DNA of 64,000 bases from an uncultured Verrucomicrobiae bacterium (GCA_963762565.1 CAVXLD010000005.1:548338-612337); one strand, 5' to 3'. Positions 21,901 through 49,391 are shown, counted from the stretch's first letter. Notes: a model not told the origin generated them from the letters alone. Made by a program: numbers and translations.

Positions 21901-22695
21901 ATGCTATCCTCCCCGAATCACTTGCCGCTTCCTGCGGCTGTCCTCGACGCCGGTCTCCGAGACCGCGAACATCTCCGCCACCTGTTACTTGCGCATCCAT
22001 CAGTGGATCTTAAAGCTGAACTCTCGGCGCTTGCGGAGGTTAGAGAGACCATCGAATCAATTTCTTTGCGCCTTTTGTTCTGCGACCTGGGAGACGATCC
22101 AGCGCAGATCTTCGCTTGGCTCGGCAACAGACCGCCGACCCTGGACGTGATTCTCATGACCAAAGAGGAAAAATGGGCTGCTCGCGCGTTCGAGGTGGAC
22201 GCTTTGGATTTTCTCTTAAAGCCGTTGTCGAAGGAGCAACTGAACCGCAGTCTTCGCCGGTTGTTACGGCTGGACTGGTCCAGCAATGTTAGCGCCGCAC
22301 CGGCGGAGCGAGCGTTTGTGCCTTTCGAACGCGGACGGCGTTTGGTGTCGGTTGATGAAATTTGTGCGATTCAAGCGGTCGGAAATTACACGCGGATTCT
22401 TTTTGCGGACGGCACCACCGAGGTTGCGCTGCGCCCGCTGCGGCGATGGGAGGAGACACTCCCCAAGAATAGCTTTTTGCGGATTCATCGATCAACACTC
22501 GCCAATACCAAGCGCGTGCGGCGGATTGAGATGACCGGGAAAGGTGACGAATGCTGGGCTGAGGTTGACGGCATCACGGAAAGACTTGCCGTCAGCAGGA
22601 GATCTTTGGGGGGGGTTCGCGCGGTTTTGAGTATGACCGAGTCAAAAACGGCTCGATTCGCCTTTAGCGGAGGTCAATTAAGCACGCCGCTTTAG
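21901..22695 (+). CDS. LytR/AlgR family response regulator (atypical receiver + LytTR domain)
   Basis: AFEVDALDFLLKP receiver end; LytTR motifs IQAVGNYTRI, FLRIHRSTLAN, LAVSRR. Confidence 0.9.
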   Translation: MLSSPNHLPLPAAVLDAGLRDREHLRHLLLAHPSVDLKAELSALAEVRETIESISLRLLFCDLGDDPAQIFAWLGNRPPTLDVILMTKEEKWAARAFEVDALDFLLKPLSKEQLNRSLRRLLRLDWSSNVSAAPAERAFVPFERGRRLVSVDEICAIQAVGNYTRILFADGTTEVALRPLRRWEETLPKNSFLRIHRSTLANTKRVRRIEMTGKGDECWAEVDGITERLAVSRRSLGGVRAVLSMTESKTARFAFSGGQLSTPL

Positions 22696-22700
22696 ATACC

Positions 22701-23825
22701 GTGAGCCAACCGTCCCCCAGACAGAACCTCTTCCGAGAAGCGGCCCTCGCCAAGATTCGCTCGCCGGAACAGCTCGACGCGTTGCTTCCAATTACTTCGC
22801 CTTTGGGCTGGTTGGCTTTATTGACGTCGGCCATCGCGCTGGGCGTCCTCATATTCTGGGCCTTTTTCGGCATGATCGTTCGCACCGCGACAGGCCAAGG
22901 CATTATTGTCCGTAATAGCGAATCGGGCCTCAGCTCGGTCGTCGGCCAAGGATCGGGGCTAGTCTCCGAAGTCCTCATAAAGCCCGGTGACAGTGTGCAA
23001 GCAGGTCAGGTCATGTTTTACTTGGATCTCACCCCGCTCAAGCAGCAGTTGGCCAGCGCCGAAAGCACGATGGAAAGTCTTCTGGCCCAAGATGCTAACC
23101 AAGCCAAGGACGAATCGGATAGGATCAAGACCTTACAAGAAAAATTGGCAAACCAGCAGAGCCTCTATGACCAAGGTCTCCTGACGAAAAGTCAGATCCT
23201 GGATACGAAGAACGCCATTTACGACGTCCAGGCGCGCCAGTATTCCCGGAACCAACAGATATCCGATCAGAGAGCCAGGATTCGGGATCTTGAACTTCGT
23301 CTGATACAAGAAGGAACGATTCGCTCCGTTCGTGCCGGGCAAGTGATCGAGGTCCAAGTCGGACTTGGTGATTTCATCCAGCCCGGGCGAGTGCTTGCGC
23401 GTATGGAAGGTCTTTCCGGTGACCGGGGAGCTCTGGTTTTTGTGCCAGCGAATGAAGGTAAGAACATCAAGACCGGCATGACGATCCGGATCTCGCCATC
23501 CACCGTAAAACCAGAGGAATACGGTTATATCCAGGGCAAGGTTAAAAGTGTCTCCTCTTACCCGGTGACCAGAGATGAGATGATGTTCTACCTGCAGAAT
23601 GAAGTACTGGTCAATCGCCTGCTTCAAAGCGGCGAGACGATTTCTGTAGCGGCGACCTTGGAATCGGATCCCAGCACCCCGAGCGGGCTACGCTGGTCTT
23701 CCTCCGAGGGTCCCGATCTTCCGGTGGAAGGTGGAACGGTATGCAGCGCCTCGGTTGTACTGGCACGGCAGCGCCCCATCACTTTGCTGGTTCCATTTCT
23801 CAAAAAGCAGCTGGGTCTGTATTAA
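22701..23825 (+). CDS. NHLP/NHLM bacteriocin system secretion protein (HlyD family)
   Basis: LFREAALAKIRSPEQLD..L, one TM helix, SPSTVKPEEYG, RWSSSEGP, C-terminal RPITLLVP. Confidence 0.92.
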   Translation: MSQPSPRQNLFREAALAKIRSPEQLDALLPITSPLGWLALLTSAIALGVLIFWAFFGMIVRTATGQGIIVRNSESGLSSVVGQGSGLVSEVLIKPGDSVQAGQVMFYLDLTPLKQQLASAESTMESLLAQDANQAKDESDRIKTLQEKLANQQSLYDQGLLTKSQILDTKNAIYDVQARQYSRNQQISDQRARIRDLELRLIQEGTIRSVRAGQVIEVQVGLGDFIQPGRVLARMEGLSGDRGALVFVPANEGKNIKTGMTIRISPSTVKPEEYGYIQGKVKSVSSYPVTRDEMMFYLQNEVLVNRLLQSGETISVAATLESDPSTPSGLRWSSSEGPDLPVEGGTVCSASVVLARQRPITLLVPFLKKQLGLY

Positions 23826-25993
23826 TGGCGATTCGTCTACCGAACCGGCGCGTGCGCACCCCGACGGTGATCCAAATGGAAGCTGTCGAATGCGGCGCGG
23901 CGGCACTGGCCATCGTGCTTGGCCACTATGGTCGAATTGTTCCGCTCGAGCAGTTGCGCGAGGAATGCGGCGTGTCACGCGACGGAAGCAGGGCGCTGAA
24001 CGTCATTAAAGCAGCCACGCGTTACGGTCTGGAGTCAAAAGGCTTTAAGTACGATATCGGGAAGCTGGCCAAAGTGCGGTTGCCGGCCATCTTGTTCTGG
24101 AATTTTAATCACTTTGTCGTGCTGGACGGTATCAGCGGGCACGGCAAAGTCTTCCACATTAACGACCCAGCCCGAGGCCGCCGAAAAGTCCACGCCGACG
24201 AGTTCAACGACAGTTATACAGGCATAGTTCTGACTTTTCAGCCGACTCCGGAATTTCGAAAAGGGGGCCGCAGACCCAGCACGCTGAGGTTTCTCGGTGC
24301 ACGGCTGCAAAAGAGCCGCACCGCCTTCGTCTATGCGTTTCTTTGCGCACTGCTGCTGGTAATTCCCGGTCTCATCATCCCGGCGTTTATGCGGGTTTTC
24401 ATCGATGATTATCTGGTTGGCTCAGAAAAGACCTGGATCCGCCCGCTCCTTGCCGGAATGGCCGCTGTTCTGCTTCTGCAGATGCTCCTCACGGCGCTTC
24501 AGCAATATTGCCTGCTGCGTTTTCGAGAGAAGCTCTCACTGGCAGGCTCTGGCCGTTTCCTTAAGCATATTTTGCGGCTACCGATGCGCTACTTTTCCCA
24601 GAGGTTCGCCGGCGAGATCGGTTCCCGGCTTCCTCTTAATGATGAGGTGGCGGGGGTGGTCGGGGGGCAGCTCGCGAAAATCTCGTTGGATCTGGTGCTA
24701 GTGGTTTTCTTTGCCGTCTTGATGTTTTTGTATGACCCGGTCCTCGCCACAATCTGTGTAGGCGTGGCGCTGATCAACGCAGCGATTGTCCAAATCGTAG
24801 GCCGAGCCCGCGCCGACAAGAATCGGATTGCAACTCAGCACTATGGAAAGATGACCGGCACGTCGATCAACGGTCTTCAGATGATCGAGACGTTAAAGGC
24901 GAGCGGAGGAGAAGATGAATTCTTTGGACGTTGGGCGGGGTATCAAGCCCAGTATCTAGCTGAAAAACAAGCACTGCTTACCTTTTCGCAATATATTATG
25001 ACGGTCCCGACGGTGCTCAACGCCATGAGCACGACGATCGTCCTGGCGGTGGGCGCTTTCCGGATCATGGACGGCAGCATTACCTTGGGAACCTTTGTGG
25101 CGTTTCAGGCGTTAGCCGGCCAATTCGCGGGTCCATTGAATAGCTTGATCCAATTTGCCAATAACCTTCAGATGTTAGCTGCGAACATCACCCGCATCAA
25201 TGACGTATTCCAGGCGCCGGAGGATCCCATCTACGCGGCGCAACCGGATACGGCTAAGTTTGCATCCGTTTCCAGTCTCAGCGGGCGACTAGAGCTTATC
25301 GATGTCACGTTCGGCTATTCTCCCCTTGAGAGACCGCTGATCGAAAATTTTAGCCTGAGCCTTTCACCCGGTTCTCGAGTGGCGCTGGTTGGCGGCAGCG
25401 GCAGCGGTAAATCCACCATCGCTAAGCTCGCCTCGGGGCTCTATCGGCCTTGGAGGGGCGAAGTCCGATTCGACGGCTATACGATCGATGAAATTCCGAG
25501 GGACCTCTTTGCGATTTCCGTGGCCATGGTAGACCAGGATGTCATCTTAATTTCGGGTTCAGTAAAAGACAATCTCACCCTGTGGAACGCCTCAGTGCCC
25601 GAACAGGCGATCCACCGGGCGTGCGACTATGCCGGAATCGCTCACGTCATCGCCTCGCGCAGCGGCGGCTATCAGAGCGAGCTTGGTGAAGGCGGGGGCA
25701 ATCTTAGCGGCGGGGAACGCCAACGTTTGGAGATCGCTCGCGCCCTGGTGCACAGTCCCAGCCTTCTGATTCTTGATGAAGCGACCAGTGCTTTGGATGC
25801 CACCACCGAGATGGTAATCGATCAAAACCTGCGCCGGAGCGGCTGCGCCTGTTTAATCGTGGCACACCGGCTAAGCACGATCCGGGATGCTGACGAAATC
25901 ATCGTGATGGACGCTGGCAAGATCGTCGAGCGGGGAGTGTTCGAGGAATTACACGCCCGAAGAGGCAGCCTATTTCGCTTGATGGAACAATGA
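23825..25993 (+). CDS. NHLM-type C39 peptidase-containing ABC transporter (LanT-like)
   Basis: QMEAVECGAA (catalytic Cys), NHFVV (His), INDPA (Asp), TMD, GGSGSGKST, LSGGERQR; TAATG overlap with hlyD. Confidence 0.95.
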   Translation: MAIRLPNRRVRTPTVIQMEAVECGAAALAIVLGHYGRIVPLEQLREECGVSRDGSRALNVIKAATRYGLESKGFKYDIGKLAKVRLPAILFWNFNHFVVLDGISGHGKVFHINDPARGRRKVHADEFNDSYTGIVLTFQPTPEFRKGGRRPSTLRFLGARLQKSRTAFVYAFLCALLLVIPGLIIPAFMRVFIDDYLVGSEKTWIRPLLAGMAAVLLLQMLLTALQQYCLLRFREKLSLAGSGRFLKHILRLPMRYFSQRFAGEIGSRLPLNDEVAGVVGGQLAKISLDLVLVVFFAVLMFLYDPVLATICVGVALINAAIVQIVGRARADKNRIATQHYGKMTGTSINGLQMIETLKASGGEDEFFGRWAGYQAQYLAEKQALLTFSQYIMTVPTVLNAMSTTIVLAVGAFRIMDGSITLGTFVAFQALAGQFAGPLNSLIQFANNLQMLAANITRINDVFQAPEDPIYAAQPDTAKFASVSSLSGRLELIDVTFGYSPLERPLIENFSLSLSPGSRVALVGGSGSGKSTIAKLASGLYRPWRGEVRFDGYTIDEIPRDLFAISVAMVDQDVILISGSVKDNLTLWNASVPEQAIHRACDYAGIAHVIASRSGGYQSELGEGGGNLSGGERQRLEIARALVHSPSLLILDEATSALDATTEMVIDQNLRRSGCACLIVAHRLSTIRDADEIIVMDAGKIVERGVFEELHARRGSLFRLMEQ

Positions 25994-28878
25994 GCGCCGA
26001 AGCCCACGCATCGACCGGTATCGCTTTGTCTGGAAGCCATATCTTGAGTCTGGGCGAGACGACGAGCCGCATTTTACAGGTCTCGAAAGGCGCTCTGGAG
26101 TTGTTCCTGGTTTTGGGAGAGCCAGGGGTAGACGCCAGGCGTCAACACCTGGCCACGGTCTCAGAAGGAAAGTCGTGCTTCGATGTTGGATTTAACTTAT
26201 CAGACGCTGGTTTTACTATCTTAGTCACTGGCCAGCCTGGAACCGTCGTTCAGCTGGTAGAAATGGACCAGCTCGACCGTCAGGAGCTCTCAGTACGATT
26301 AGGCGAGTGGCTAACCACCTTCGTTCACGGAATCTCCAAGCTGGTCAACGATGAGAGGGAGCTGCACCGTTCCGCGAAGCCGGGTCCTCTTGGGCCGATG
26401 GCAGCCGGGGAAATTTTAGGCATACCACAGGGTGTTTGCTGGTGGAGCGCCGATGGTGCGGAGGCGACGTATTTAGGCCTGGAAACTCTGCGACTCCGGT
26501 ATGTCCCTTTGGTCTCGCGTGGTTGGGTCATCATCTCCAGACCGATCCCCTCTTCCCAGATCCTGGACAGTGACGAGTTTTTGGAATTAGCCGACTGGCA
26601 ATCGGAGGTTGCTGCCGCGCACGATTTCCTTAGTAAAGTCATTCGCAGCGCATTGGCTAAACAGGAAGCAAAAGCGCGAGAAACGGCGGCTGAGCGATCG
26701 CAACTTCGCCAGGCAGCCGAGGATGGCGGATGGCAAGACATCGCCACCGTTCTTTCCGGCTCTCGGGAGGGGCGGTCTGCGCTGCGGTCTGCGCCCGGTG
26801 GATCTTCGGTGGGAGTCGCCTTTCAGCGCGTAGCCACCCTTCTGGGCGCGGAATTGCGATCGATGCCAACGCTGGTCAAAGGCGGTAGCGCTTCCGCTAT
26901 GGTCGGACTGTTAGCGCGAGAGGCCCAACTGCGCTGGAGAGATGTGCTGTTGACCGGGCGCTGGTTCACTCGTGACCACGGCCCAATGATTGGCTTTCTG
27001 TCGGCCTCGGATGAAGCAGTTGCCCTTTTGCCGAAGGGATCGGCCCGCTATCAAATGGTACGAGCAGACGGCACCAGAGTCCGGGTGAACGCTGCCACGG
27101 TTGGGCAGTTGCGGCCCTCAGCCATTTCGCTTTACCGCACCTTGCCATCCCGAAGCCTGGGAATGAAGGATGTCATTCGATTCACAGCCAGGGGAAGCGC
27201 TCGCGACCTGGTGATGATCGTCACGATGATTGTCATCACCGGGCTGCTAGGCATGCTCACACCGATGGTAACCGCCAGAATCTACGATGTCATCATCCCC
27301 CAGTCAGAGCGTACCCAGATGACGCAGATCGCGCTCATTCTGATCAGCGCAGCAATTATCAAATGTCTCTACGAGCTCGTTCGGGCCGTCTCTTTGCTAC
27401 GAGTCGAAAACCGGGCACATGCCCACTTGGAAGCTGCGATCTGGGACCGGTTGCTTCGACTTCCGACGGGTTTCTTTCGAAAATTCACGGCCGGCGATCT
27501 TGCCAACCGCGCGCAGGGCATCACCACCGCTCATCAACTGCTTTCTTCAACGGGGACCACGATTCTGTTTATCCTGCCCGCCGCCCTGTTCAACCTCATC
27601 GTAATGTTCTTTTACAGTGCGCCTTTGGCTCTCTGGGGGCTGGGAATTGCGCTGATAGGAACTCTGATCTCGGTCGGTTTCAGCGTCGCGGAGGTCTTGA
27701 TCCTGCGAAAACAATACGAGATTCGGGGCCTGCTTTCCGGTCTCGTTTTCCAATTGATCAACGGCGTCGCGAAGTTTCGCCTCGCCAATGCAGAGCAATT
27801 CGCTTTTGCTGAGTGGGCGCGACCGTATGCTTCGCAGGAGAGGCTGTCCGTCCAAGCCGGAAAGTGGAGAGTTGCTTCGGGTACGTTTTTCTCCGGGTTC
27901 TCACTGCTCACCACGGGGATCATTTTCTGGTTGGTATCCCAGGAAATGGAGAAGGCGGTCAGCGCACCAGCGTTTACTACCGGCGCCTTCCTCGCTTTCA
28001 ATAGCGCGTTTGGGGCGCTGATCGGAGCGATGATTCAGGTAGGTCAGAATTCGCTGGGTTTACTGCAGCTTTTTCCGCTGCTCGAACGCACTAAGCCCAT
28101 CTTTGAAGCAGAACCCGAGATCGCCCTAAACCGGCTCTCTCCAGGCGAACTGCGCGGCGAGATTGAAATTGCGAATATTCGTTTCACTTATGGCGCAGAC
28201 TCACCGCCCATCCTATCCGGATTTTCGCTAAAGTTGCGGGCCACGGAAATGGTGGCTCTAGTTGGGCCGTCGGGCTCTGGCAAATCCACTGTGCTCCGGC
28301 TTCTTCTCGGTTTCGAAACACCCAATGCCGGTTCGATCTTCTATGACGGCAAAGATCTGCAGACCCTGGATTTGAGAGACGTGCGCCGGCAGATCGGCGT
28401 TGTGTTGCAGACCACCCGGCTCGTGACCGGTGACATTTTCCGGAACATCGTCGGCGAGTCGAACTTGACCCTGGACGACGCATGGGAAGCAGCGGAAATG
28501 GCGGGACTCGCCAATGACATTCGCGCGATGCCCATGCAGATGCACACGCTGATAAGCGAAGGCGGCGGCGGTTTTTCCGGTGGGCAGCGGCAACGATTGG
28601 CCATCGCGAGGGCATTCGCTCACAAGCCTCGGATGCTTTTCTTCGATGAGGCGACCAGCGCACTGGACAATCGAACCCAGGCGATTGTGACGGAGTCGCT
28701 GCAGCGGATGCAAGTTACCAGGGTCATCATTGCTCACCGGCTTAGCACGATCGTGAAAGCGGATCGCATCGTCGCGCTCCGCGAGGGAAGAGTCTTTGAG
28801 GAAGGTACTTACGCGGAGCTCATGGAAAAAAAAGGATTCTTTTATGAGCTCGCTCGCCGCCAGCTTGCCTCAAGATGA
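25990..28878 (+). CDS. NHLM-type second ABC transporter (no peptidase domain)
   Basis: long N-terminal extension, TMD, GPSGSGKST, FSGGQRQR, FFDEATSALD. Confidence 0.92.
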   Translation: MSAEAHASTGIALSGSHILSLGETTSRILQVSKGALELFLVLGEPGVDARRQHLATVSEGKSCFDVGFNLSDAGFTILVTGQPGTVVQLVEMDQLDRQELSVRLGEWLTTFVHGISKLVNDERELHRSAKPGPLGPMAAGEILGIPQGVCWWSADGAEATYLGLETLRLRYVPLVSRGWVIISRPIPSSQILDSDEFLELADWQSEVAAAHDFLSKVIRSALAKQEAKARETAAERSQLRQAAEDGGWQDIATVLSGSREGRSALRSAPGGSSVGVAFQRVATLLGAELRSMPTLVKGGSASAMVGLLAREAQLRWRDVLLTGRWFTRDHGPMIGFLSASDEAVALLPKGSARYQMVRADGTRVRVNAATVGQLRPSAISLYRTLPSRSLGMKDVIRFTARGSARDLVMIVTMIVITGLLGMLTPMVTARIYDVIIPQSERTQMTQIALILISAAIIKCLYELVRAVSLLRVENRAHAHLEAAIWDRLLRLPTGFFRKFTAGDLANRAQGITTAHQLLSSTGTTILFILPAALFNLIVMFFYSAPLALWGLGIALIGTLISVGFSVAEVLILRKQYEIRGLLSGLVFQLINGVAKFRLANAEQFAFAEWARPYASQERLSVQAGKWRVASGTFFSGFSLLTTGIIFWLVSQEMEKAVSAPAFTTGAFLAFNSAFGALIGAMIQVGQNSLGLLQLFPLLERTKPIFEAEPEIALNRLSPGELRGEIEIANIRFTYGADSPPILSGFSLKLRATEMVALVGPSGSGKSTVLRLLLGFETPNAGSIFYDGKDLQTLDLRDVRRQIGVVLQTTRLVTGDIFRNIVGESNLTLDDAWEAAEMAGLANDIRAMPMQMHTLISEGGGGFSGGQRQRLAIARAFAHKPRMLFFDEATSALDNRTQAIVTESLQRMQVTRVIIAHRLSTIVKADRIVALREGRVFEEGTYAELMEKKGFFYELARRQLASR

Positions 28879-30662
28879 TCCCCCGGAAACCAACACTGCT
28901 CTTTACGCCCATCCTGACGGGCTTGGTCGCAATCTGCTTCTCTCTGGACTCGATGCAGGGTCAAACCGGTGAAAAGCCGAGTCCCACTCCGCAGTTATCC
29001 CCGAGCCCGTCTTTGCCGTTGATTCCGGGGGAAAAGGAATCCGATCCCTTAACGGGGCCGGCGGTCCCGTGGGTTAGTCCGCTCCCGGTTCCTACTAAGC
29101 GGGATCTCCAAATAATCCGCGAGGCATTCGAAAAAAAAGCTTACGACCCCTTTTCTCGCGTCGACCTTGGGTTTGCCATTCCCAGGATTTCGGCGCTGAA
29201 GGCCGTCCGGGTCACCCTGGACTTAAGTCCTCAAATCCTTTTTCAGAAAGCAGCGGTCCAGGGGAGTGCTGGAACGGTCCAGGTAACCCAGGGAGCCTTT
29301 GACACCACGATCACCGGCTCGATCGCTCCCAATGCCTCACGCAACGAGCGCTACATCCAGAGCAAGCCTGCGCCCGGTGCAAACCCGGTAGCCTTCCCGA
29401 ATCCGCTGGCGGCGCGGAGCGGCGTCATCAACTATGAACTCGGCCTGCAAAAAACCCTGGAGAACGGCATCGTCATTAACCCAAACGTCAGTTTCAGCCA
29501 AAGCACCAACACCGATTTCGACCATCAATACAATGATACTAACCAGGGAACAGTCAATTTCACGGTTACGATTCCCTTGGCCAAAGGCGGCGGCACACTG
29601 GCGAACAAGGCGCCGGAGATCGCCGCTCGTTACGATCTCCTGGCCAGCGTCCTGCAACTCCGGTTCATCAGCGCGCAAAGTTTGCTCAACACGATCCAAG
29701 CTTATTGGGCCTGCAAAGCGGCGGAGGAGACCTATCAACTTCAGGTGGAAGCGGTCGAAAGTGCGGATAGGCTGGTCACAATCAGCGCCGCGTTGATTCA
29801 AGCGGATGAGCGCGCCCCGGACCAGTTGCCACAGATTCTGGCCGAACGGGGCAATTCGATTGCGAACCGGACACAGGCGGAGAGCTCTCTGATAATCGCA
29901 CGCCAGAACCTGGCGGTAGAAATGGGGTTTAGCGCTGCCTCGCTCCCGGTCGCTCCGCTGGTCGCGGACGAGTTTCCTCAACCGCCGGAAACTGAGCACT
30001 ACCCGGCAGCCGACAAGCTGATCGCCTCTGCGCTTCTTTTACGGGACGATCTCAGAGGCGTGCGAGAAACCGTAAAATCCCAGAAAGTCCTGATGGACGC
30101 GGCCTACTTGAACCTGCGTCCCACGGTGAATCTGCAGTTGGCGGCCAGCTATGTTCCGCTGCAAAGCCGAACAAATCTGACGAACACCCATGGGAATACT
30201 TGGGAGGTAGGCGCACTACTCAGTCTCAACTGGCCCGTGGAAAACAACACGGCGATTGGCTTGTATATTCAAAGCCAGAGCTCGTTTCAGAACAGCCAGA
30301 TCACCGTCGAAAGCACTGAAATGGCTGTTGAATCGAGCGTGATCACGGCTTTAGCCCAGTTAAAAGCGGCGGCAGTTAACGTTAAAGTTTATCGGGATTC
30401 GGTGCGCTGGTACCAGCAGGCATTGGCAGCTCAGGAAAAACTTTTCCAGTTAGGGCAAGCCACATTGGTAGACACGATCACCATCCGGCAAAACTTGATT
30501 AATGCGGAACTCTCTTACATCACGGCCCAGCAAAGCTACGCTGTCTCTCTTACTCAACTTCGCTTTGCCACCGGCACTCTGATCTTTTCCGACGAGAAAG
30601 GAAGCTGGATCGATAGCGAGGTCTGGAAGACCGTTCCATTTATGTTTTTGAAAAAGCCATGA
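28875..30662 (+). CDS. TolC family outer membrane efflux protein
   Basis: signal peptide, two helical OEP-like repeats, ends LRFATG; ATGA-coupled to the ABC gene. Confidence 0.85.
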   Translation: MIPRKPTLLFTPILTGLVAICFSLDSMQGQTGEKPSPTPQLSPSPSLPLIPGEKESDPLTGPAVPWVSPLPVPTKRDLQIIREAFEKKAYDPFSRVDLGFAIPRISALKAVRVTLDLSPQILFQKAAVQGSAGTVQVTQGAFDTTITGSIAPNASRNERYIQSKPAPGANPVAFPNPLAARSGVINYELGLQKTLENGIVINPNVSFSQSTNTDFDHQYNDTNQGTVNFTVTIPLAKGGGTLANKAPEIAARYDLLASVLQLRFISAQSLLNTIQAYWACKAAEETYQLQVEAVESADRLVTISAALIQADERAPDQLPQILAERGNSIANRTQAESSLIIARQNLAVEMGFSAASLPVAPLVADEFPQPPETEHYPAADKLIASALLLRDDLRGVRETVKSQKVLMDAAYLNLRPTVNLQLAASYVPLQSRTNLTNTHGNTWEVGALLSLNWPVENNTAIGLYIQSQSSFQNSQITVESTEMAVESSVITALAQLKAAAVNVKVYRDSVRWYQQALAAQEKLFQLGQATLVDTITIRQNLINAELSYITAQQSYAVSLTQLRFATGTLIFSDEKGSWIDSEVWKTVPFMFLKKP

Positions 30663-40904: not shown

Positions 40905-41774
40905 TCAGAATGAATCGCTCTTGACGGCGAGTCCGATGGGTCCGGGCAGCCCTTTGATGAAGCTGGGGCTAATCGCGGCTCCGGTGGTGGCGTCGTATTT
41001 GCCAACCGTGCCGACGAATTCGTTCGCCACGAAGAGGATGTTGCCCGACACCGCGAATCCTTCGGGTCCGGGCAGCCCTGTGATGAAGTTGGGGCTAATC
41101 GCGGCTCCGGTGGTGGCGTCGTATTCGCCAACCGTGTTGTCTGCGTTCGCCACGAAGAGGATGTTGCCCGACACCGCGAGTCCGACGGGTCCGGGCAGCC
41201 CTTTGATGAAGCTGGGGCTAATCGCGGCTCCGGTGGTGGCGTCGTATTTGCCAACCTTTTTGCCTGCGTTCGCCACGAAGAGGATGTTGCCCGACACCGC
41301 GAGTCCTTCGGGTATGCTCAGCCCTGTGATGAAGTTGGCGTTAATCGCGGCTCCGGTGGTAGCCTCGTATTTGCCAACCGTGTTGCCTGCGTTCGCCACG
41401 AAGAGGATGTTGTCCAACACCGCGAGTCCGATGGGTCCGGGCAGCCCTGTGATGAAGCTGGGGCTAATCGCGGCCCCGGTGGTGGCGTCGTATTTGCCAA
41501 CCTTGTTGCCTGCGTTCGCCACGAAGAGGGTGTTGCCCGACACCACGAGTCCTTGGGGTATGCTCAGCCCGGTGATGAAGCTGGCGTTAATCGCGGCTCC
41601 CGTTTTGGCGTCATATTTGCCCACGACCCCAATGAGTGGGCTTCCAGCAAACCCGGTGACATACAGCTGTGCGCAGGCGTTTCTTGGCATGGCCCAAAGC
41701 GCGGCAGCGGCGATAAGAAATGCGTATAAAGCGCGCAAAAGGGGCCCCCAATTTGAGGTGAGGGTTGTCTTCAT
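40905..41774 (-). CDS. secreted tandem-repeat (beta-propeller-like) protein
   Basis: signal peptide then six 41-aa repeats GKYDATTGAAISPSFITGLPGPxGLAVSGNILFVANAGNTV. Confidence 0.8.
   Translation of the reverse strand: MKTTLTSNWGPLLRALYAFLIAAAALWAMPRNACAQLYVTGFAGSPLIGVVGKYDAKTGAAINASFITGLSIPQGLVVSGNTLFVANAGNKVGKYDATTGAAISPSFITGLPGPIGLAVLDNILFVANAGNTVGKYEATTGAAINANFITGLSIPEGLAVSGNILFVANAGKKVGKYDATTGAAISPSFIKGLPGPVGLAVSGNILFVANADNTVGEYDATTGAAISPNFITGLPGPEGFAVSGNILFVANEFVGTVGKYDATTGAAISPSFIKGLPGPIGLAVKSDSF
40921..41620. repeat. 123-bp coding tandem repeat, six units
   Basis: unit anchors at 40981, 41107, 41230, 41353, 41476, 41599. Confidence 0.9.
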
Positions 41775-42189
41775 GGCTTTGTTCTGTCTTGGTTCAGCGT
41801 GAAAGTGAAAAGTCGGTGCTTGGCCGCCCGGCTGAGCAGATCAATTGTCGAATCGCGTACACATTCAACCAGCGGAGTATTGCCGATGAGCGAGAGAATC
41901 GCCTGGTTTTTTAGGGGAGTTGCTTGGAGGGCGCCGGAACCCATGTAATGAGTTTCCAGCCGGGACACAAGCTGTGTCAAGCAAGATAGTTCAAGGTTCA
42001 AAGTTCGACGTTCCAAGTTCCAGGCTACATTTGAGTCGCCGCTTGTCAGGGTTTGGACCGCCGCTCGTCCCAATCAGGTTGCCGAGAGCTGTTCGCCACG
42101 GTAGATGTCGCCGAACATCGCCGCCCAAGTTGTTGATGTGAGCGACAATCAATTAACTAACCACCATCAGTAAGACTCGAAGCAAGATC

Positions 42190-42549
42190 ATGAGCCAAGA
42201 AAAACTACAGGCCTTCGCGAAAGCCGTTAGCAAGAGCGAAGAGTTGCAAAAGCAATATCTTTCGATTCAAGTCGAAATAGCCAAATCGAGCGCCGAAAAG
42301 CTCGCCAAGTTGTCAGAGAGCGCCGGGACGCCTTTTACCGCTGAGGAGTACTTGAACTCGGTGGCAGAGTCATCAGAGGAGATGTCCACAGAGCAATTGC
42401 ATCGTGTGGCCGGAGGACTTTCCGCAGCGGAAGAAATTTATATTGCGTCGTCTATATTGACTGCGGGCATGACTTGTTGGGTTAAGGCGATCGTGTCGGC
42501 CTCAACTCAGGGTGGCGCCGAAAAATGTGTTGAATTACCCGGACTTTAG
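42190..42549 (+). CDS. Nif11-leader precursor 15
   Basis: core LSAAEEIYIASSILTAGMTCWVKAIVSASTQGGAEKCVELPGL. Confidence 0.92.
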   Translation: MSQEKLQAFAKAVSKSEELQKQYLSIQVEIAKSSAEKLAKLSESAGTPFTAEEYLNSVAESSEEMSTEQLHRVAGGLSAAEEIYIASSILTAGMTCWVKAIVSASTQGGAEKCVELPGL

Positions 42550-42775
42550 CAACTTCAACCCGCTACTCAGGTGTAGTTTTCGAGCAAGTAACAAATGGCA
42601 CTATTCCGGTACTCCAATAATCCGTCACCCTGTTTTTGCGTGATGAGATGGAGGGCGAAACGCCTCATGAAATGGAGGGATTGCCTGCGTGTCTAGGACC
42701 CCAGCTGACTGCCGAAATCCGACGTTGCCCCCTCTCCCCCTTTAGCTATGTCGGACAAGTTTGGAGGACAACCCC

Positions 42776-42871
42776 ATGAGGCGACCTAACTTCCAACAAC
42801 AGAAGACCCATCGCGAGGTTTGCGGCGATGCCAGTTTTGCGTTGGCAAAACGCCTCGATGGCGACATCTGA
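42776..42871 (+). pseudogene. internally deleted mini-NHLP ORF (31 aa)
   Basis: GGAGG RBS; MRRPNFQQQKTHREVCGDASFALAKRLDGDI joins the NHLP N-terminus to its C-terminus. Confidence 0.7.
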
Positions 42872-43023
42872 GTCGCCGCTTGTCAGGGTTTGGACCGCCG
42901 CTCGTCCCAATCAGGTTGCCGGGAGTTTTTCGCGACGGTAATTTCGCTGAACATTGCCGCCCAAGTTGTCGAGATGAACGACAATCAATTAATTAACAAC
43001 AATCAAAGACGAGAAACAAGATC

Positions 43024-43380
43024 ATGAGCACAGAAAAACTCCAAGCCTTCGCGGAAGCTGTTGGCAAGAGCGAAGAGCTGCAAAAGCGCGTGGCTTCGAT
43101 TCAGGCGGAATCCGCCAGAACGACCGCCGAAAAGCTCGCCAAGTTGTCCGAGAGTGCCGGTACGCCTTTTACCGCTGAGGAGTACTTGCACTCGGTGTTA
43201 GAGTCATCGGAGGGGATGTCCGCGCAACAATTGCATAGCGTGGCCGGTGGAGTTTGGGACCCGTCGGCCACGAACATTGTCACCTCTATCTTTTCTGCAG
43301 GCATAGTGTGCGGACTCTTTGCGACCGCTTCAGCCATTGGGAAGGGAGACGCTGATCAGTGCCAAGTTAAGATGGGATAA
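43024..43380 (+). CDS. Nif11-leader precursor 16
   Basis: core VWDPSATNIVTSIFSAGIVCGLFATASAIGKGDADQCQVKMG. Confidence 0.92.
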   Translation: MSTEKLQAFAEAVGKSEELQKRVASIQAESARTTAEKLAKLSESAGTPFTAEEYLHSVLESSEGMSAQQLHSVAGGVWDPSATNIVTSIFSAGIVCGLFATASAIGKGDADQCQVKMG

Positions 43381-43603
43381 GTGCCAAGTTAAGATTTAAG
43401 TAAAGACAGCACTACCCGCGCAGTTAGCAACTTCAACCCGCTACTCGGATGCAATTCGAGCAAGTAACAAATGGCAGTACTCCGGTACTCCAAGAATCCC
43501 TTACTCTGCTTTTGTATGATGAGACGGCGACGAAGCACCTGATGAACTGGAGGGATTGCGTCTCCAGGACCCCAGTTGACTGTCGAAATTGGAGGACAAC
43601 CCC

Positions 43604-43698
43604 ATGAGGCGACCTAACTTCCAACAACAGAAGACCCATCGCGAGGTTTGCGGCGATGCCAGTTTTGCGTTGGCAAACGCCTCGATGGCTACATCTGA
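43604..43698 (+). pseudogene. second mini-NHLP copy (1-nt deletion)
   Basis: near-identical to 42776-42871, one A shorter near 43675. Confidence 0.65.
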
Positions 43699-43853
43699 GT
43701 CGCCGCTTGTCAGGGTTTGGACCGCCGCTCGTCCCAATCAGGTTGCTGAGAGCTGTTTGCCAGGATAGCCGTCGCCGAACATTGCCGCCCAAGTTGTTGA
43801 TGTGAGCGACAATCAATTAACTAACAACCATCAATAAGACCAGAAGCAAGATC

Positions 43854-44225
43854 ATGAGCCAAGAAAAACTGCAGGCCTTCGTAGAAGTCGTTAGCAAGAG
43901 CGAAGAGTTGCAAAAGCGATTCAATTTGATTCAGATGGAAGCGGTCAAATCGACCGCTGAAAAGCTGGCCAAGTTGTCCGAGAGTGCCGGTACGCCTTTT
44001 ACCGCTGAGGAGTACTTGAAGTCGGTGGCAGAGTCATTAGAGGAGATGTCCACGGAACAATTGCGTAGTGTGGCCGGTGGTGAATTCTCTCTCTCTGCTG
44101 ATGAGGGTCTCAAGTTTATGAACTCGATTATAGGTAGTTTCGGTGGTAGCCAATGCGTAGTCACGCTGATTCATTCGCTCGCAGAAAAGGGCAACCCTTT
44201 AGAGTGTATACCAGTTAGAAAGTAA
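43854..44225 (+). CDS. Nif11-leader precursor 17
   Basis: core EFSLSADEGLKFMNSIIGSFGGSQCVVTLIHSLAEKGNPLECIPVRK. Confidence 0.92.
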   Translation: MSQEKLQAFVEVVSKSEELQKRFNLIQMEAVKSTAEKLAKLSESAGTPFTAEEYLKSVAESLEEMSTEQLRSVAGGEFSLSADEGLKFMNSIIGSFGGSQCVVTLIHSLAEKGNPLECIPVRK

Positions 44226-44253: not shown

Positions 44254-44360
44254 ATGAGCCAAGAAAAACTCCAGGCCTTTGCGGAAGCTGTTCGCAAGAG
44301 CGAAGCGTTGCGAAAACGATTCGCTTCGATTCAGTAGGAGGCCGCCGAAAAGCTCGCCAC
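44254..44360 (+). pseudogene. truncated precursor with in-frame stop
   Basis: MSQEKLQAFAEAVRKSEALRKRFASIQ* fused to next cassette. Confidence 0.8.
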
Positions 44361-44527
44361 GGCCACATCTGAACCGCCGCTTGTCAAGGTTTGGACCGCC
44401 GCTCGTCCCAATCAGGTTGCCGAGAGCTGTTCGCCACGATAGATGTCGCCGAACATTGCCCCTCAAGTTGTTGGTGTGAGCGACGATTAATTAAGTAACA
44501 ATCATCAATAAGACCGGAAGCAAGATC

Positions 44528-44884
44528 ATGAGCCAAGAAAAACTACAGGCCTTCGCGGAAGCTGTTAGCAAGAGCGAAGAGCTGCAAAAGCGATTCAATT
44601 CGATTCAGGTGGAAGCGGCCCGAACAACCGCTGAAAAGCTGGCCAAGTTGTCTGAGAGCGCCGGTACGCCTTTTACCGCTGAGGAGTACTTGAATTCGGT
44701 GGCAGAGTCATCAGAGGAGATGTCCGCGCAACAGTTGCATGGCGTGGCCGGTGGAGTTTGGGACCCGTCGTCCCATAACATCTTAGTCTCTATCGGTACT
44801 TTAGGCTTAGGGTGTGCACTCAAGGCGATCATTTCAGCCGCGGAGGGAGACGTTGATAAGTGCCAAATGAAGCGGCCAACTTAA
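44528..44884 (+). CDS. Nif11-leader precursor 18
   Basis: core VWDPSSHNILVSIGTLGLGCALKAIISAAEGDVDKCQMKRPT. Confidence 0.92.
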   Translation: MSQEKLQAFAEAVSKSEELQKRFNSIQVEAARTTAEKLAKLSESAGTPFTAEEYLNSVAESSEEMSAQQLHGVAGGVWDPSSHNILVSIGTLGLGCALKAIISAAEGDVDKCQMKRPT

Positions 44885-44979
44885 GTAAAGGCAGCATTAG
44901 CCGCGTAGCGGACTGCCGAAATCCGACGTCGCCCCATCTCCCCCTTTAGCTATGTCGGACAAGTTTGGAGGACTACCCC

Positions 44980-45285
44980 ATGAGGCAACCTAACTTCCAA
45001 CAAATGACCCGTCGCGAGATCGAAGATTACATGATCGAAAGAAGCTTAGTAGATCCAGAGTTTCGTGCTCGTCTGATCGAAAATCCACGTGAGACGGTAT
45101 CTGGGCTCGGGTTGCCGGTGGGCGCAGACGTCAAGATTCAAGTATTGGTAGAAGAACCCGACTCGTTCTGCATCGTACTGCCGCGAGTCCTGCGGGAGTC
45201 GCATGAACTCCCTGCGGAAGCTTTGAGCGATATAGCCGGTGGCGGCAGCTTTCCTCTGGCAGATCTTTTCAAGGGTTACATCTAA
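44980..45285 (+). CDS. NHLP (nitrile hydratase-like leader) precursor peptide
   Basis: TRREIE..IERSLVDPEFRARLIENPR..IQVLVEE..IVLP..EL..EALSDIAGG; 13-aa core GSFPLADLFKGYI. Confidence 0.9.
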   Translation: MRQPNFQQMTRREIEDYMIERSLVDPEFRARLIENPRETVSGLGLPVGADVKIQVLVEEPDSFCIVLPRVLRESHELPAEALSDIAGGGSFPLADLFKGYI

Positions 45286-45339: not shown

Positions 45340-45681
45340 ATGAGCAAAGAAAAACTCCAGGCCTTCGCCGAGGCGGTTAGTAGAAGCGAAGAGCTACAAA
45401 AACGATTGGCTGAAATTCAGGTGGAAACCGCTAGGTTGACAGCCGAGAAGATGGCCAAGTTGTCTGAGAGCGCTGGTATCCCCTTCACCGCAGAGGAGTA
45501 TTTGAAGTTGGTGGCAGAGTCATCAGTGGAGATGTCAGCAGAACAATTGCAGAGCGTGGCCGGTGGAAAAGCTGGGGAATCAGCTGTCAGAGAGACTACT
45601 TACCCTTGGGAACCAGGGTGTAACAATACGCGCGTTACGGTTTTGCAGGGAGTTGAGTGTTTGCCGAAACCGGCGCTGTAA
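45340..45681 (+). CDS. Nif11-leader precursor 19
   Basis: core KAGESAVRETTYPWEPGCNNTRVTVLQGVECLPKPAL. Confidence 0.9.
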   Translation: MSKEKLQAFAEAVSRSEELQKRLAEIQVETARLTAEKMAKLSESAGIPFTAEEYLKLVAESSVEMSAEQLQSVAGGKAGESAVRETTYPWEPGCNNTRVTVLQGVECLPKPAL

Positions 45682-45765: not shown

Positions 45766-48700
45766 ATGGCAATCGACCTGATGGATGTCTGGACGGAGGC
45801 GTTGTCGCCGGAGCGGGATACTCGTCGCTTGGAGCAACGGCTTCGCTTTCTTGGATGGAGCCACGATGAGGCGCGAAACCGCTTGTCCGACGATTTTTTA
45901 TTCGATGCGCGAAAGGAACCTGCCGCGCTCTCTTTGCTGGAAGGCGGTCTTGCGCGTTTTGAGCGCTCAGGCCCCGCCAAACGGAGGGATAGCGGGCGCG
46001 GGAGACAGAGTTCCGATAAAGTCCTTCCTTTCGAAGAAGTACTCTCCCCGTTCGCGTTCGCTGCCGCCTCAGACCTGATACGAAAAGAGAGACGACGCTG
46101 GCTGAAACTGATGTCGAGACCCGCCCGGCGCGCTTTAGTCAGGAGTTTACTTGAGCGGTTGTGCGAAACCGCCGCTCCGGCACTATCGGCGGCTCTGAGG
46201 CGGCGCCCTCAAGCGCTCTACCTGATGTTACCGGGGGTGCGTCTCCCCCAAAAAAGAACCTTACCTGCGTTTCGTAGACGGATTGCGACAGGGAGGTCTG
46301 CGCACCATGCTTGCTGATTTAACCGTGCTCGGGCGCCTAATTTGCGCACGGATGGAACAATGGCAGGCTGCTACCGCCGAGTTTCTTCTGCGTCTACAGA
46401 ATGACGCTCCGGTGTTGCAAGCGAGTTTTGGTCTCGAGAAAATCTGGAGCGCTCATCTCCAATGTGACCTTGGTGATTCCCATCAGGAGGGAAGGAACGT
46501 GATGGCAATCACCTTTCTTGATGGCAAGCGGCTCGTATATAAACCGCGTTGCGTGCGTATGGGCGAGGCCTGGTTCGAATTGTTGGAATGGCTGAAACGG
46601 GAAGACGCCAGCTTTTCGTTGTCAGCACCGCGAGTGCTGAGTCGCCAGAACTATGGTTGGGTGGAATGGGTTGACCCGGCGACGAATCCAGATGAACGCG
46701 GAGCGGAGCTCTACTACCAACGCGCTGGAGAACTGCTGGCTTTAGCCTGGCTCTTCTCCGCCACGGACCTGCACCAAGAAAATGTTATTGCTACCCAGGA
46801 CGGGCCTGTGATTATCGATCTCGAGACTTTATTTACTCCGGTCGTACGACCGTTTTTTACCAGCCGGCAAGAACTGGAGCTGACCGCGGGAACAAATGAC
46901 GTCGGCGTTGGCATCCTGATGACTTCGCTCTTACCGGTATGGCAGGTGAACGAAGACGGTCGCGCCCGGGACCTCAGCGGGTTCGCCGGCCGGATGCGAG
47001 AGGAAGCATCTTATGCTGAACCAATTTGGGTCGAGCTCGGCACAGACCAGATTCGACTCGAACCAAGGCTCGTGCGAGGTTCGCAACCTCATAATATTCC
47101 GAGAGACGGCGAGGGGCGTCTTGTCCTGCCTTACGATTATAGCGAAGCCATTGTGGAAGGGTTTATTCGCACGACGCGTTTTATGCTTGGGCGCCGGACG
47201 CAGCTCCTGGATCCGAATGGGATCCTGGCTCCGTTTCGGGAAGGGCAAATACGCTACTTGATTCGTGACAGCCAAATCTATGGGGTGATGCTGCACCGGC
47301 TCCTAAAACCAGAATTTCTCGGCAGTTTCGCGGTTCGGGATATCGAGATCGAGAAGTTAGCCCAAGCCTATTTCCCTATAACGGTTGAGGAGCCCCGGCC
47401 CGACGCCTGGAACTGTTATGACGGTGAGCGACACGCACTCACTAAGGGCGATGTTCCGCTCTTTCACGCAAAGACCGACGAGTTCACGTTGCATGGTGAC
47501 GGGGGTATCCAGGTCCACGATTATTTTTGGAGAACGGGCTGGAACGTCGTGCAAACTAGATTGTCCAATCTCGATGAAGCCGCTATCGCCGAGCAAGCCG
47601 GGTTGATCAGAGCGAGCCTTGAGTCGAGCTCAATCCGTCCAGGTATTGCGCGCGATGAAACTTCCGTTGGGCTGATCACCGAGCAGAACCACGACCGAGA
47701 AGGAAGCATCCTCAATCCGCCTCCGGATTCGACCTCAAACCATCTAGTCGAACACGCAACAAACGCCTCCCGTTTGTTCAATGCCGCCGAGCGGATTGCA
47801 GCCGACATCGAGCGCCGCACCGTTCCGCTCCGGCGAGGCGGTGTCACCTGGCTCAGTGTCTCTTTTGACCCACTCTATAAAAGACAAGTCTCAGCGGTGC
47901 TCGGATTGGACCTCTATGGCGGCAACCTCGGAGTCGCTATTTTCTTGGCTGCTCTTGCCTATACCACCGGGGAGCGCCGTTGGGCGGCTCTAGCCGAACA
48001 ATGCACGCGCAAACAACTAGACCAGTTACAAGCGCCCGAGATGCGGGCGGTCATCCAACGCATGCCACTCGGGATCGGAACTGGCGTTGGCTCCCTGATT
48101 GAAGGATGTCGAGTACTTGGGGGACTCCTGGGTGACGAGCGGTATCTACTCAGTGGCGGGTACTTTTCCGACTTCGTTTCTGTCGCTGCCGAAGCGAAAC
48201 AGATGGAATCGGATGTACTTGGCGGCATGGCCGGAGGCATCCTGGCACTCTTAAACCTCCACCGCGCAATATCTGCACCCGAGCTACTGGAAAGAGCGAC
48301 CAATCTTGGCTTGGCGCTTTTGGAAAACCGGGTGCAAGCTTCGACCGGACATGCCGTCTGGTTGAGCAGCTTCGCCGAGCGACCTCTGACTGGATTCGGA
48401 CACGGAGCTGCAGGGATTGCTCTGGCTCTGCATCGGCTCGGACAGGCGACAGGGGAGACCATCTTTTCCGCGGCCGCGGAGGAAGCGATCGGTTATGAGC
48501 GGGCGGTATTTGATCCGAAGGCAGTTAATTGGCCGGATTTTCGTCGCGGTGCATTCAAGCCCGGCCAGAAGTCGTTCATGTATGGGTGGTGTACGGGGCC
48601 GGCGGGTATCGGTCTTGCCAGACTGGCCCAATTTGGTGGAGCGACCCCTGAGGTCAGTGAGGAAATACAGGCTGCCATCGCCGACGCTACGTCGGGACCA

Positions 48701-48979
48701 ATTTTCCCGGCAGGTCATCTGTGTTGTGGCCGATGCGGACGGATAGAACTGCTTCTCGAGGCGGCCAATCGTCTCACCGACAATACACTGCGAGATGCAG
48801 CGGTCTCCCAGGCGATACTGCTCGAATCGCAGGCTCAGGAATCAGGATTTTATGCGCTAAACGGAGCCGATCGCGGCCGGCTGTTTGCGCCTTCTTTTTT
48901 TCAGGGCACTTCCGGCATAGGCTATACATTTCTCCGGATACTGAACCCTCAATTACCTTCCGTTCTATCGTTAGGCTAG
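45766..48979 (+). CDS. lanM: class II lanthipeptide synthetase LanM, CCG (ProcM-like) type; one frameshift near 46250
   Basis: dehydratase GDSH, LVYKPR, TDLHQENVIA, IDLETLF; cyclase DLYGG, GFGHGAAG, WCTG, LCCG, FFQGTSGIGY; about 1070 codons when joined. Confidence 0.95.
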
Positions 48980-49184
48980 AAGACCGCGGCTACCTCGCTA
49001 GAGATATAACATACTTGATTTATCTTTGTAGTTAGAGCTTTGACTTGATATGCTCCGAACGCAGCAAAGTTATTCAGCTCGGAGCCTGTCACAAGTCACA
49101 CTAGTTAAGCTAGGAGGAACGAGCCTGCATTTCTGCGATGACCGTGATAATCGGCTTCCAGTGTGCTTTTTGAGCCTGTTTTCA

Positions 49185-49391
49185 CATCCAGCCGACACTA
49201 TACCAATTGTTCCGCGGACGTCTCCTCTGATGACTCTGCCACCGACTTCAAATACTCCTCTGCAGTGAAGAGGGTACCAGCGCTCTCGGACAATTTGGCC
49301 ATCTTCTCGGCTGTCGATTGAGAAATTTCCACATGCAGGGATGCGGGTCGTTTTTGTAGCCCCTCGCTCTTGCTAACGGCCTCGGCGAAGC
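49185..49391 (-). pseudogene. decayed Nif11 precursor downstream of lanM
   Basis: revcomp reads FAEAVSKSEGLQKR..TAEKMAKLSESAGTLFTAEEYLKSVAESSEETSAEQL, no start, degenerate GG site. Confidence 0.8.

Follow-up and report, generated by a model that had tools for sequence, protein, structure and literature searches.

Does a single lanthipeptide synthetase that serves many precursor genes always stand for a library of unlike peptides, or can it also vary one conserved framework? This question is raised by a locus in a 64,000-nucleotide stretch of DNA from an uncultured Verrucomicrobiae bacterium (GCA_963762565.1 CAVXLD010000005.1:548338-612337), here called the window. Positions 21901-49391 of the window, the stretch under study, contain 19 precursor genes with Nif11-type leaders, one LanM, the three genes of an NHLM exporter, a TolC-like channel, a LytTR-domain regulator and an NHLP gene. 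A preliminary description of this DNA had listed the same genes, which is borne out, and had seen in them a self-contained class II lanthipeptide cluster in which one LanM serves many Nif11 precursors, which is supported. It had also likened the locus to the prochlorosins, an analogy that fails at the level of the core peptides, where Ser and Cys occupy fixed registers across four verrucomicrobial lineages. We conclude that the cluster is real and probably functional, and that it is likely to be a class II lanthipeptide system for a secreted family of hydrophobic two-ring peptides built on one fixed framework. Leader searches with tblastn and the operator scans covered the 6.1-Mb genome, which is 94% complete. 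All coordinates refer to the window, and features lie on the plus strand unless stated otherwise.

The framework is seen in the cores, which share the scaffold S-x2-(T/S)-x4-C-x6-S-x8-10-C within a predicted hydrophobic helix. Eighteen of the 19 precursors are intact as assembled, and all 18 intact cores contain Cys together with Ser/Thr. The cores had been described as variable, which holds for their sequence (mean identity 32%) but not for their architecture, since 17 of the 18 have exactly two Cys and 12 of these 17 show the full scaffold. Likewise, the leaders, which had been called near-identical, are similar (mean 79% amino acid identity, range 66-99%). In ten window paralogues, the ratio of nonsynonymous to synonymous substitution rates (dN/dS) is 0.16 for the leaders and 0.42 for the cores, and the core residues W2, N8, S12, G17, C20, A24, S27 and A28 are invariant. 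A profile search with the window's own alignment gave 188 protein clusters at 90% identity, of which the best 120 are listed here, including 15 of the window's own proteins; another 68 are weaker matches. Exactly two Cys are present in 110 of these best 120 homologs. Among the 109 distinct two-Cys cores that they provide, and with positions counted from the first Cys (C1), the matches listed have Ser at C1-8 in 83 of 108 cores, Thr or Ser at C1-5 in 79 of 108, Ser or Thr at C1+7 in 102 of 109 and a Cys spacing of 16-17 in 84 of 109, with Gly at -3 and Ala at +4 also recurring. The two-ring frame S-x7-C-x6-(S/T)-x8-10-C occurs in 76 of the 109 listed cores, compared to a mean of 1.0 and a maximum of 4 in shuffled cores.

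Because a set retrieved by its cores leans towards the query, loci anchored on LanM were also checked. Retrieval with LanM only gave six loci, five of them verrucomicrobial and from four genomes, with LanM proteins that are 41-54% identical. In three of these loci (L020, L021 and L022), Ser at C1-8 and Ser/Thr at C1+7 are found in all ten two-Cys cores and the C1-5 residue in eight of the ten, and the remaining five precursor genes encode one Cys or none. Each of the three, like the window, contains one hydrophilic precursor that departs from the scaffold (window 45340-45681, L020:4091, L021:9082 and L022:8351), possibly a second component or a signal. In L021 (14282-14563) and L022 (15175-15477), there are also stand-alone Nif11-type genes with short, Cys-free tails and a copy of the direct repeat described below in front, which are candidates for additional signal peptides. 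GNAT acetyltransferase genes adjoin the distant clusters at L021:13346-14236 and L022:5383-6399, so that the peptide variants there might be acylated; no such gene is found in the window.

How the two rings would be closed can be narrowed down from p9 and p11, in which the possible acceptors are only at C1-15, C1-8 and C1+7. The simplest reading is therefore that Cys1 is bonded by Ser(C1-8) and Cys2 by Ser(C1+7). The first ring would enclose a dehydro residue wherever C1-5 is Ser or Thr, as in p5, which has Ser there. This topology is about as probable as all other pairings together. Cyclisation in either direction is known for a ProcM-clade enzyme (PMC13060382, in the part available), and nested or reversed pairings may thus also occur. 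The spacing of ring A, S-x2-(S/T)-x4-C, is present in 74 of the 109 listed cores, mostly with Thr, and ring A alone matches the class III motif Sx2Sx2-5C, which gives rise to labionin or to lanthionine with an internal dehydro residue (PMC8341899; also PMC7268733, both from available excerpts). A plain ring is expected here, because the LanM retains the catalytic His, the loss of which is believed to make labionin possible, and it is most improbable that the motif lets a class II LanM form a labionin-type crosslink, hitherto known from class III only. The scaffold cores are hydrophobic, with a neutral to acidic character. An AlphaFold2 model of p5, based on a 98-row alignment, predicts a single helix over core residues 6-31 with a predicted local distance difference test (pLDDT) score of about 67, and ring pairing is outside its reach. 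The p5 model had no match in the PDB with Foldseek, and no core match above 0.77 was obtained in the ESM Atlas. The cores match no named compound in the searches made, and the preliminary description had likewise recognised none.

The lanM gene (45766-48979) is of the CCG type, and its product contains the PF13575 and PF05147 domains and scores 654.6 with TIGR03897, against a cut-off of 304. As assembled, it is divided into two frames, 45766-46317 and 46283-48979, by a deficit of 2 bp in a C5/A6 run near 46245, the sole frame-breaking indel in the coding parts of the 8.7 kb shared with locus L017. All seven close full-length homologs (78-93% identity) are unbroken and 1059-1091 amino acids long. 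Among four runs, one contig (run X1) bridges the break, and two extra C restore the frame. Two runs also indicate that a T is missing at 45288, suggesting that the assembly drops bases in short runs. The break in lanM is thus very probably an assembly error. Eight of the nine residues listed for the dehydratase of CylM are present (D252, H254, K274, D347, H349, N352, D364 and R506), and the ninth, T512, which is critical for phosphate elimination in CylM (PMC4550811, in part), is replaced by Ser. This position is Ser in the window LanM and in its seven close homologs and Thr in three of four distant ones. The zinc ligands in the WC and CCG motifs (HLCCG at nucleotide 48716) are present, as is the His of the GHG motif; the enzyme is a LanM with WC, CCG and GHG rather than a class III LanKC, of which the absence of zinc ligands and catalytic His is the hallmark. 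The CCG zinc motif has been linked to ProcM-like enzymes and to promiscuity (available parts of PMC10783134 and PMC12328550).

The precursor genes are preceded by a repeated intergenic module of 160-200 bp, whose most conserved block is a direct repeat of two 10-bp half-sites separated by 12 bp, with the consensus RCCRYTYRTC-N12-RCCRYTYRTC. A TTG -35 element follows 9 bp further on, and then a weak -10 element. The array contains 15 copies of the repeat, 13 of which match the consensus without mismatch. Thirteen are located 131-152 bp before an intact precursor gene, another precedes p4 by 239 bp and one is an orphan. In this way, 14 precursor genes have a repeat of their own and the remaining five are positioned behind repeat-bearing genes, while lanM follows the last copy via p18, the NHLP gene and p19. 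Outside the array, the pattern has eight matches in the 6.1 Mb, which does not exceed the counts at other spacer lengths. At the three distant loci, there are 12 sites at spacer 12, compared to 0-2 at other spacers and a mean of 0.17 in shuffled sequence. The half-sites are kept in these repeats and the spacers are unrelated, and 10 of the 12 sites lie 76-128 bp before the start of a precursor or NHLP gene. With the half-site derived from the window alone, the distant loci gave 10 sites, compared to 0-1 at other spacers. The binding sites of BlpR and ComE have 9-bp half-sites and 12-bp spacing, a geometry equal to that of the array repeats (PMC12943804, from its available text), and the window, L020, L021 and L022 all carry a LytTR gene. 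The claim that a LytTR protein regulates the cluster is thereby backed by a conserved, operator-like repeat, which the LytTR protein is predicted to bind. Interpretation of the upstream module as a sigma-54 or hairpin element is rejected, as its 5' part is a decayed NHLP coding tail.

Along the array, p1 (31429-31794; two Cys, divergent core) follows a LytTR-type direct repeat at 31290-31321, and p3 (32497-32862) follows one at 32345-32376. Between them is p2 (31952-32322), which is frameshifted directly after GG at a G run that is one G short compared to its paralogue p17. The repeat at 33211-33242 precedes both a leader remnant (33333-33455) and p4 (33450-33812; two Cys, Ser at C1+7). Next are p5 (34376-34729; repeat at 34224-34255), p6 (34943-35284; two Cys, divergent core; repeat at 34791-34822) and the group of p7 (35497-35856), p8 (35902-36258; mosaic leader) and p9 (36309-36683) behind a repeat at 35366-35397. 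A decayed repeat with no intact gene downstream is placed on the minus strand at 36831-36862. An inverted unit on the same strand consists of p10 (36960-37307) and its repeat (37414-37445), with a recognisable NHLP tail ahead of it. After a leader remnant at 37505-37561, p11 (37755-38117) and p12 (38212-38586) share the repeat at 37623-37654, p13 (38814-39170) has one at 38662-38693 and, beyond a decayed precursor leader (39268-39480), p14 (39665-39982) has one at 39534-39565. The latter gene is short and encodes one Cys, and a near-identical core is found in another assembly (P0182). Then follow p15 (42190-42549; repeat at 42038-42069), p16 (43024-43380; repeat at 42875-42906) and p17 (43854-44225; two Cys, Ser at C1+7; repeat at 43702-43733). 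A leader remnant at 44254-44427 is fused to the next promoter module, whose repeat (44376-44407) precedes p18 (44528-44884), the NHLP gene, p19 (45340-45681; a distinct hydrophilic two-Cys core, shared with L017) and lanM. A further decayed precursor leader lies downstream of lanM on the minus strand (49204-49410). The full scaffold is present in p3, p5, p7-p13, p15, p16 and p18. In total, 19 full 76-residue leaders ending in GG and five leader remnants are found at this locus, and none elsewhere in the genome in a tblastn search with one leader query.

The array differs in copy number between relatives. Between tolC and lanM, there are three Nif11 genes in L018 (about 80% DNA identity), six in L017 (93-94%) and 19 in the window, and the four distant genomes have five to nine matches each. 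In L018, an intact NHLP gene continues straight into a module and a precursor gene, and for most modules of the window, the 5' portion corresponds to a degraded NHLP tail that can still be read before p10. The copied unit thus consists of NHLP tail, operator, leader and core. The leaders are mosaic (pairwise homoplasy index (PHI) test, p < 0.001) with visible breakpoints; for example, p8 changes from p12-like to p11-like. Leaders that are 89-92% identical can bear unrelated cores. An inverted scrap of a foreign lanM allele on the minus strand (33870-34086) is 98% identical to the lanM of L019 and 84% identical to the cluster's own gene, which points to DNA from another strain. The start of the NHLP gene and DNA upstream of it recur as a scrap at 42703-42817 (91% identical to 44907-45018), and there is a second scrap at 43589-43645. 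The junctions of the NHLP scrap recur in contigs of three runs (X1, X2 and X4), arguing against an array that is wholly misassembled. Copy-number change and leader mosaicism have thus taken place in the array. Searches for the precursors in 60 related genomes, in 42 same-family genomes and in viral contigs gave no match, and a metagenome scan returned three loci only. The distribution of the family is patchy, with nothing found in the 42 genomes and many fragments present in public assemblies. Most listed homologs are on contigs of 0.5-5 kb, and such arrays are possibly missed because short-read assemblies break them.

What switches the regulon on may be sought in the regulator and the NHLP gene. 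The LytTR-domain protein (21901-22695; PF04397, 50.9 bits) has an atypical receiver domain with a weak REC match and a degenerate acidic pocket. The acidic pair is lost in eight of the ten members of its clade (six of the ten have no known gene context), compared to one of 18 other LytTR proteins, while the phospho-Asp and Lys positions are largely retained. No cognate histidine kinase was found in the cluster with three kinase queries, which gave no match in six of seven loci and one weak match in L021, 7 kb from lanM. The kinases in the window are more than 10 kb upstream and have regulators of their own. In the region 9060-13560, more than 8 kb upstream of lytTR, there are two histidine-kinase-like and two response-regulator-like genes, apparently unrelated to lytTR. 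In a 27-row alignment, the NHLP-family protein (44980-45285; TIGR03793 above cut-off) is conserved from end to end; its tail after the GG site is short, lacks Cys and ends in (L/F)F-x-G-Y-x. Its gene is located immediately behind lytTR in L020, L021 and L022, and the repeat precedes it in two of these. From its conservation and position, the tail peptide is a tentative candidate for an inducer, and the protein could instead assist the exporter or help LanM in the manner of a leader. A complex prediction for the LytTR protein and the NHLP tail, made without controls, gave a score of 0.00 and carries no weight either way. No NHLP of the close type was found among 400 genomes of the phylum, five of which gave weak generic matches. 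A speculative and rather unlikely extension of these observations is a self-inducing regulon, in which an orphan, phosphorylation-independent LytTR protein would be switched by an NHLP-derived peptide and would drive an accordion array of operator-bearing genes, with cassettes swapped between strains and the two-ring frame fixed. Conotoxin frameworks offer an analogy for such a fixed frame with swapped cassettes.

The remaining genes are consistent with export across two membranes. The exporter genes are adjacent and encode an HlyD-type NHLM secretion protein (22701-23825; TIGR03794), a C39 peptidase/ABC exporter (23825-25993, with its ATG at 23825; TIGR03796 and PF03412) and a second NHLM ABC subunit (25990-28878; TIGR03797), all three above the curated cut-offs of their hidden Markov models (HMMs), as are LanM and NHLP. 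The Cys and His motifs of the C39 domain, which have a catalytic role, are visible in the peptidase/ABC sequence. The exporter genes are followed by that of a TolC-like outer-membrane channel (28875-30662; PF02321). PF04397, PF03412 and PF02321 also score above cut-off, and so does the Nif11 leader model PF07862 in all five precursors tested, in which TIGR03798 scored 26.6-30.3, slightly below its cut-off of 32.3. Absent from the preliminary description are the 15 promoter modules, a conserved lipoprotein gene and two passenger genes in the array. The lipoprotein-like gene (30659-31216, likely ATG at 30791) has an LSGC lipobox by eye and matches of 95% in L017, 66% in L018 and 22% in L022. It has no match in Pfam, its Atlas clusters are lipoproteins without names, and it is a candidate for an immunity or export accessory function. 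On the minus strand within the array are a ResA/TlpA-type thiol-disulfide oxidoreductase (40134-40637; PF00578, PF08534), which is absent in all seven related loci tested (L017, L018 and L020-L024), and an NHL-repeat beta-propeller gene (40905-41774), which has paralogues elsewhere in the genome and is absent from related loci. Both are probably passengers.

The host is a soil bacterium outside the cyanobacteria, as had been proposed. Its RpoB is 80-83% identical to those of four verrucomicrobial metagenome-assembled genomes (MAGs), labelled Verrucomicrobiae, Chthoniobacterales and Terrimicrobiaceae, and 40-66% identical, in pieces, to that of an actinomycete MAG; photosystem I PsaA/B was not found in the 94% complete genome. 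No tRNA genes were found in the 64,000-nucleotide window. A 91-bp direct repeat (20755-20845 and 62079-62169; 85% identical), placed over the start of an integrase-like gene, may delimit an island that carries the cluster. Upstream of the cluster, at 15181-20791, are split or truncated genes of mobile type (IrrE/M78, AbiEii-like with DUF6088, phage integrase), and the breaks in them may be assembly indels. A 3' remnant of a beta-helix (NosD-like) gene is located at 49426-49689, and a whole copy sits inside the array in L017. A second cluster with a LanM and an NHLM exporter, at L001:2658-17107 (G000 contig C9), also encodes a sigma-54 activator, a STAS protein and a Cys-free NHLP. It contains five tandem, identical short precursors at about 13260-14000, with a 22-residue GG leader and an 18-residue one-Cys core, and in its LanM the histidine of DxH is replaced by Leu. 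Locus L025, from an actinomycete, is a LanM/NHLM cluster that has six or more precursors of NHLP type and no copy of the direct repeat.

We propose that the LytTR protein would bind the repeat just upstream of the TTG -35 element and activate each precursor unit as well as the p18-NHLP-p19-lanM unit. By analogy with its family, LanM would recognise the shared 76-residue Nif11 leader, dehydrate Ser and Thr in the core and close two thioether rings, after which the machine formed by the C39/ABC protein, the second ABC subunit, HlyD and TolC would cleave at GG and export the peptide across both membranes. The library would expand through duplication of a unit of roughly 550 bp, made up of NHLP tail, promoter, leader and core, and recombination within the promoter and leader DNA that the units have in common, also between strains, would reshuffle it. 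As for the function of the peptides, it is plausible, if slightly short of an even chance, that they are competitive agents directed at membranes or receptors, with the frame providing activity and the side chains tuning the target range or evading immunity.

Several observations weigh against this account. The cluster is known here from genes alone as regards product, activity and expression. Among the 20 sequencing runs listed, none that contains it is of RNA, which carries no information on expression. The frequency of the scaffold is inflated by a homolog set derived from the query, with its 15 window proteins and 68 unlisted weaker matches, and five of the 17 intact two-Cys cores in the window, together with p14, deviate from it. 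The net charge of the cores, +1 to -3, is unlike that of typical cationic lantibiotics. Read support for an intact lanM consists of one 229-bp contig at depth 3, and the Thr512 of CylM is Ser in this clade. The degenerate operator pattern was tuned after the distant matches were known, the control with the window-only half-site is weaker at four mismatches (15 sites versus 1-7), and the DNA upstream of the window's lytTR-exporter operon yielded no repeat. Finally, the PHI test can be inflated by rate clustering.

Four other explanations have to be weighed against the proposed fixed two-ring family. The locus could be a true prochlorosin-type library, in which a promiscuous CCG-type LanM forms varied ring topologies on varied cores and selection acts on diversity as such. 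The Nif11 leader, the CCG motif with its link to promiscuity and the low mean core identity fit this explanation, as do the divergent minority of p1, p6, p14 and p19 and the one-Cys precursor found once each in L020, L021 and L022. However, the Ser and Cys registers are fixed in most cores and across four lineages, the dN/dS of the cores is below one and every precursor is found in a single locus, which makes it quite unlikely. A different possibility leaves the biosynthesis unchanged and alters the function only: the peptides would be SapB-like surface-active or morphogenetic molecules, or signals, rather than weapons, and the array would increase dose and variety. This is less likely than antagonism but deserves consideration, given the class III-like spacing of ring A, the hydrophobic, non-cationic cores and the Nif11/LanM product nostolanthin, which according to the available part of its description has no antimicrobial activity and acts in host contact. 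Antagonism better fits the fast turnover and the exchange between strains, the conserved lipoprotein next to the exporter would resemble an immunity protein, and nostolysamide, another ProcM-clade product, disrupts membranes in the part of the literature available.

The two explanations that would deny the lanthipeptide family a working enzyme or a selected array are less probable still. It is very improbable that the two Cys form a disulfide with the help of the ResA/TlpA-type protein while LanM is dead or serves just the odd adjacent precursor. It would agree with the count of exactly two Cys in each core, with the position of a thiol-disulfide oxidoreductase gene within the array and with the frameshift in the assembled lanM, but the oxidoreductase is missing from all seven related loci tested, the Ser positions are conserved to the same degree as the Cys, and LanM is whole in the relatives, with a read contig that bridges the break in frame. 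Somewhat less remote, though still improbable, is that the cluster is decaying here, or that recombination at the repeated module has generated the array as a selfish by-product whose copy number is scarcely selected. This direction is indicated by one broken precursor and five leader remnants, by scraps of genes and by the passengers, together with the integrase-like and toxin-antitoxin-like genes upstream and the absence from 42 same-family genomes. On the other hand, the 18 intact genes are under purifying selection, 13 of the 15 repeats match the consensus perfectly and the family comprises 188 protein clusters in public assemblies.

A fixed two-ring family of this kind would matter in several respects. 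It would be the first concrete, expressible lanthipeptide family for the Verrucomicrobiota, an abundant soil phylum whose clusters have been reported chiefly as terpene, polyketide synthase (PKS) and nonribosomal peptide synthetase (NRPS) types (PMC8692599, in its available text). It would represent another route to a library of ribosomally made peptides that are modified after translation (RiPPs), with one conserved bicyclic frame, more than 100 natural side-chain variants and visible expansion and shuffling. The family is a ready structure-activity series that can test whether CCG-type LanMs are truly selected for promiscuity, and the predicted operator renders regulation directly testable.

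Compared with known systems, of which the cited sources were available in part, the locus is similar in organisation to the prochlorosins, synechococsins and cyanotins (ProcM, SyncM), which also combine one CCG-type LanM with many Nif11-leader GG precursors in tandem arrays, with up to 16 genes in Synechococcus (PMC10783134, PMC7268733). The cores of prochlorosins and cyanotins are non-conserved (PMC7268733, PMC10783134), whereas the system described here has a verrucomicrobial host, a fixed Ser/Cys frame, a single locus for all precursors, a direct-repeat promoter per unit and a LytTR regulator, which the available text of PMC10783134 does not mention. Judged against the description of ProcM, the system operates in the manner of a ProcM cluster, yet neither its host nor the variability of its cores agrees with those of the prochlorosins. 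The largest RefSeq survey treats the Nif11 class II family as cyanobacterial with non-conserved cores, and Verrucomicrobia are unmentioned in what is available of its main text (PMC7268733). The available portions of two soil metagenome papers (PMC8692599, PMC13642348) do not describe this type of cluster, and a literature search on the core and leader motifs returned unrelated papers only. In the literature covered, from which subscription papers are mostly missing, neither the scaffold nor a Nif11/LanM array from Verrucomicrobia is described, nor are LytTR repeats for individual genes in such a cluster.

The proposed novelty of a Nif11/LanM library outside the cyanobacteria does not hold, because the lah operon of Lachnospiraceae already has nine Nif11-leader precursors and a C39 exporter (PMC6363468). 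Its cores are described as highly divergent and its host is Gram-positive, while the window combines an NHLM exporter for two membranes with 19 genes and a scaffold that is conserved. The combination of one LanM, many Nif11 precursors and an NHLM exporter was described in 2010 (Haft 2010, PMC2887384), and those NHLP/N11P clusters share the exporter trio, the adjacent NHLP and N11P genes and the paralogous expansion. The text available of that study mentions neither Verrucomicrobia nor LytTR, and in contrast to its hypervariable Cys/Ser/Thr-rich cores, the tail of the NHLP here is short, conserved and free of Cys. The streptococcal Blp/Com regulons resemble the locus in their LytTR regulator, in direct repeats of 9-10 bp, spaced by 12 bp, in front of several peptide units, in a C39 exporter and in a small GG-leader gene without modification sites (PMC12943804). 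They differ from it in that the cluster here is kinase-free, with a degenerate receiver pocket, modified lanthipeptides, a Gram-negative host and another repeat sequence.

With the SapB-type class III peptides (PMC8341899), the family shares hydrophobicity, two predicted rings and, in 74 of the 109 listed cores, the ring A spacing. However, the enzyme here is a zinc-dependent class II LanM with a catalytic His, the motif is confined to ring A, the second Ser is often Thr and some cores have neither. Nostolanthin (bioRxiv 10.64898/2026.08.14.744816, from its available part) is similar in having a Nif11 leader, a LanM, three transporters, a conserved core motif, a bicyclic product and a linked regulator, but is cyanobacterial, with two precursors, three Cys, another motif and a full two-component system. 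Clusters with one LanM and many Nif11 precursors outside the cyanobacteria are thus already known, while the scaffold, the host phylum and the per-gene promoters were not found in print. The locus is less surprising as a non-cyanobacterial library and more informative through its fixed frame, its operators and its visible evolution.

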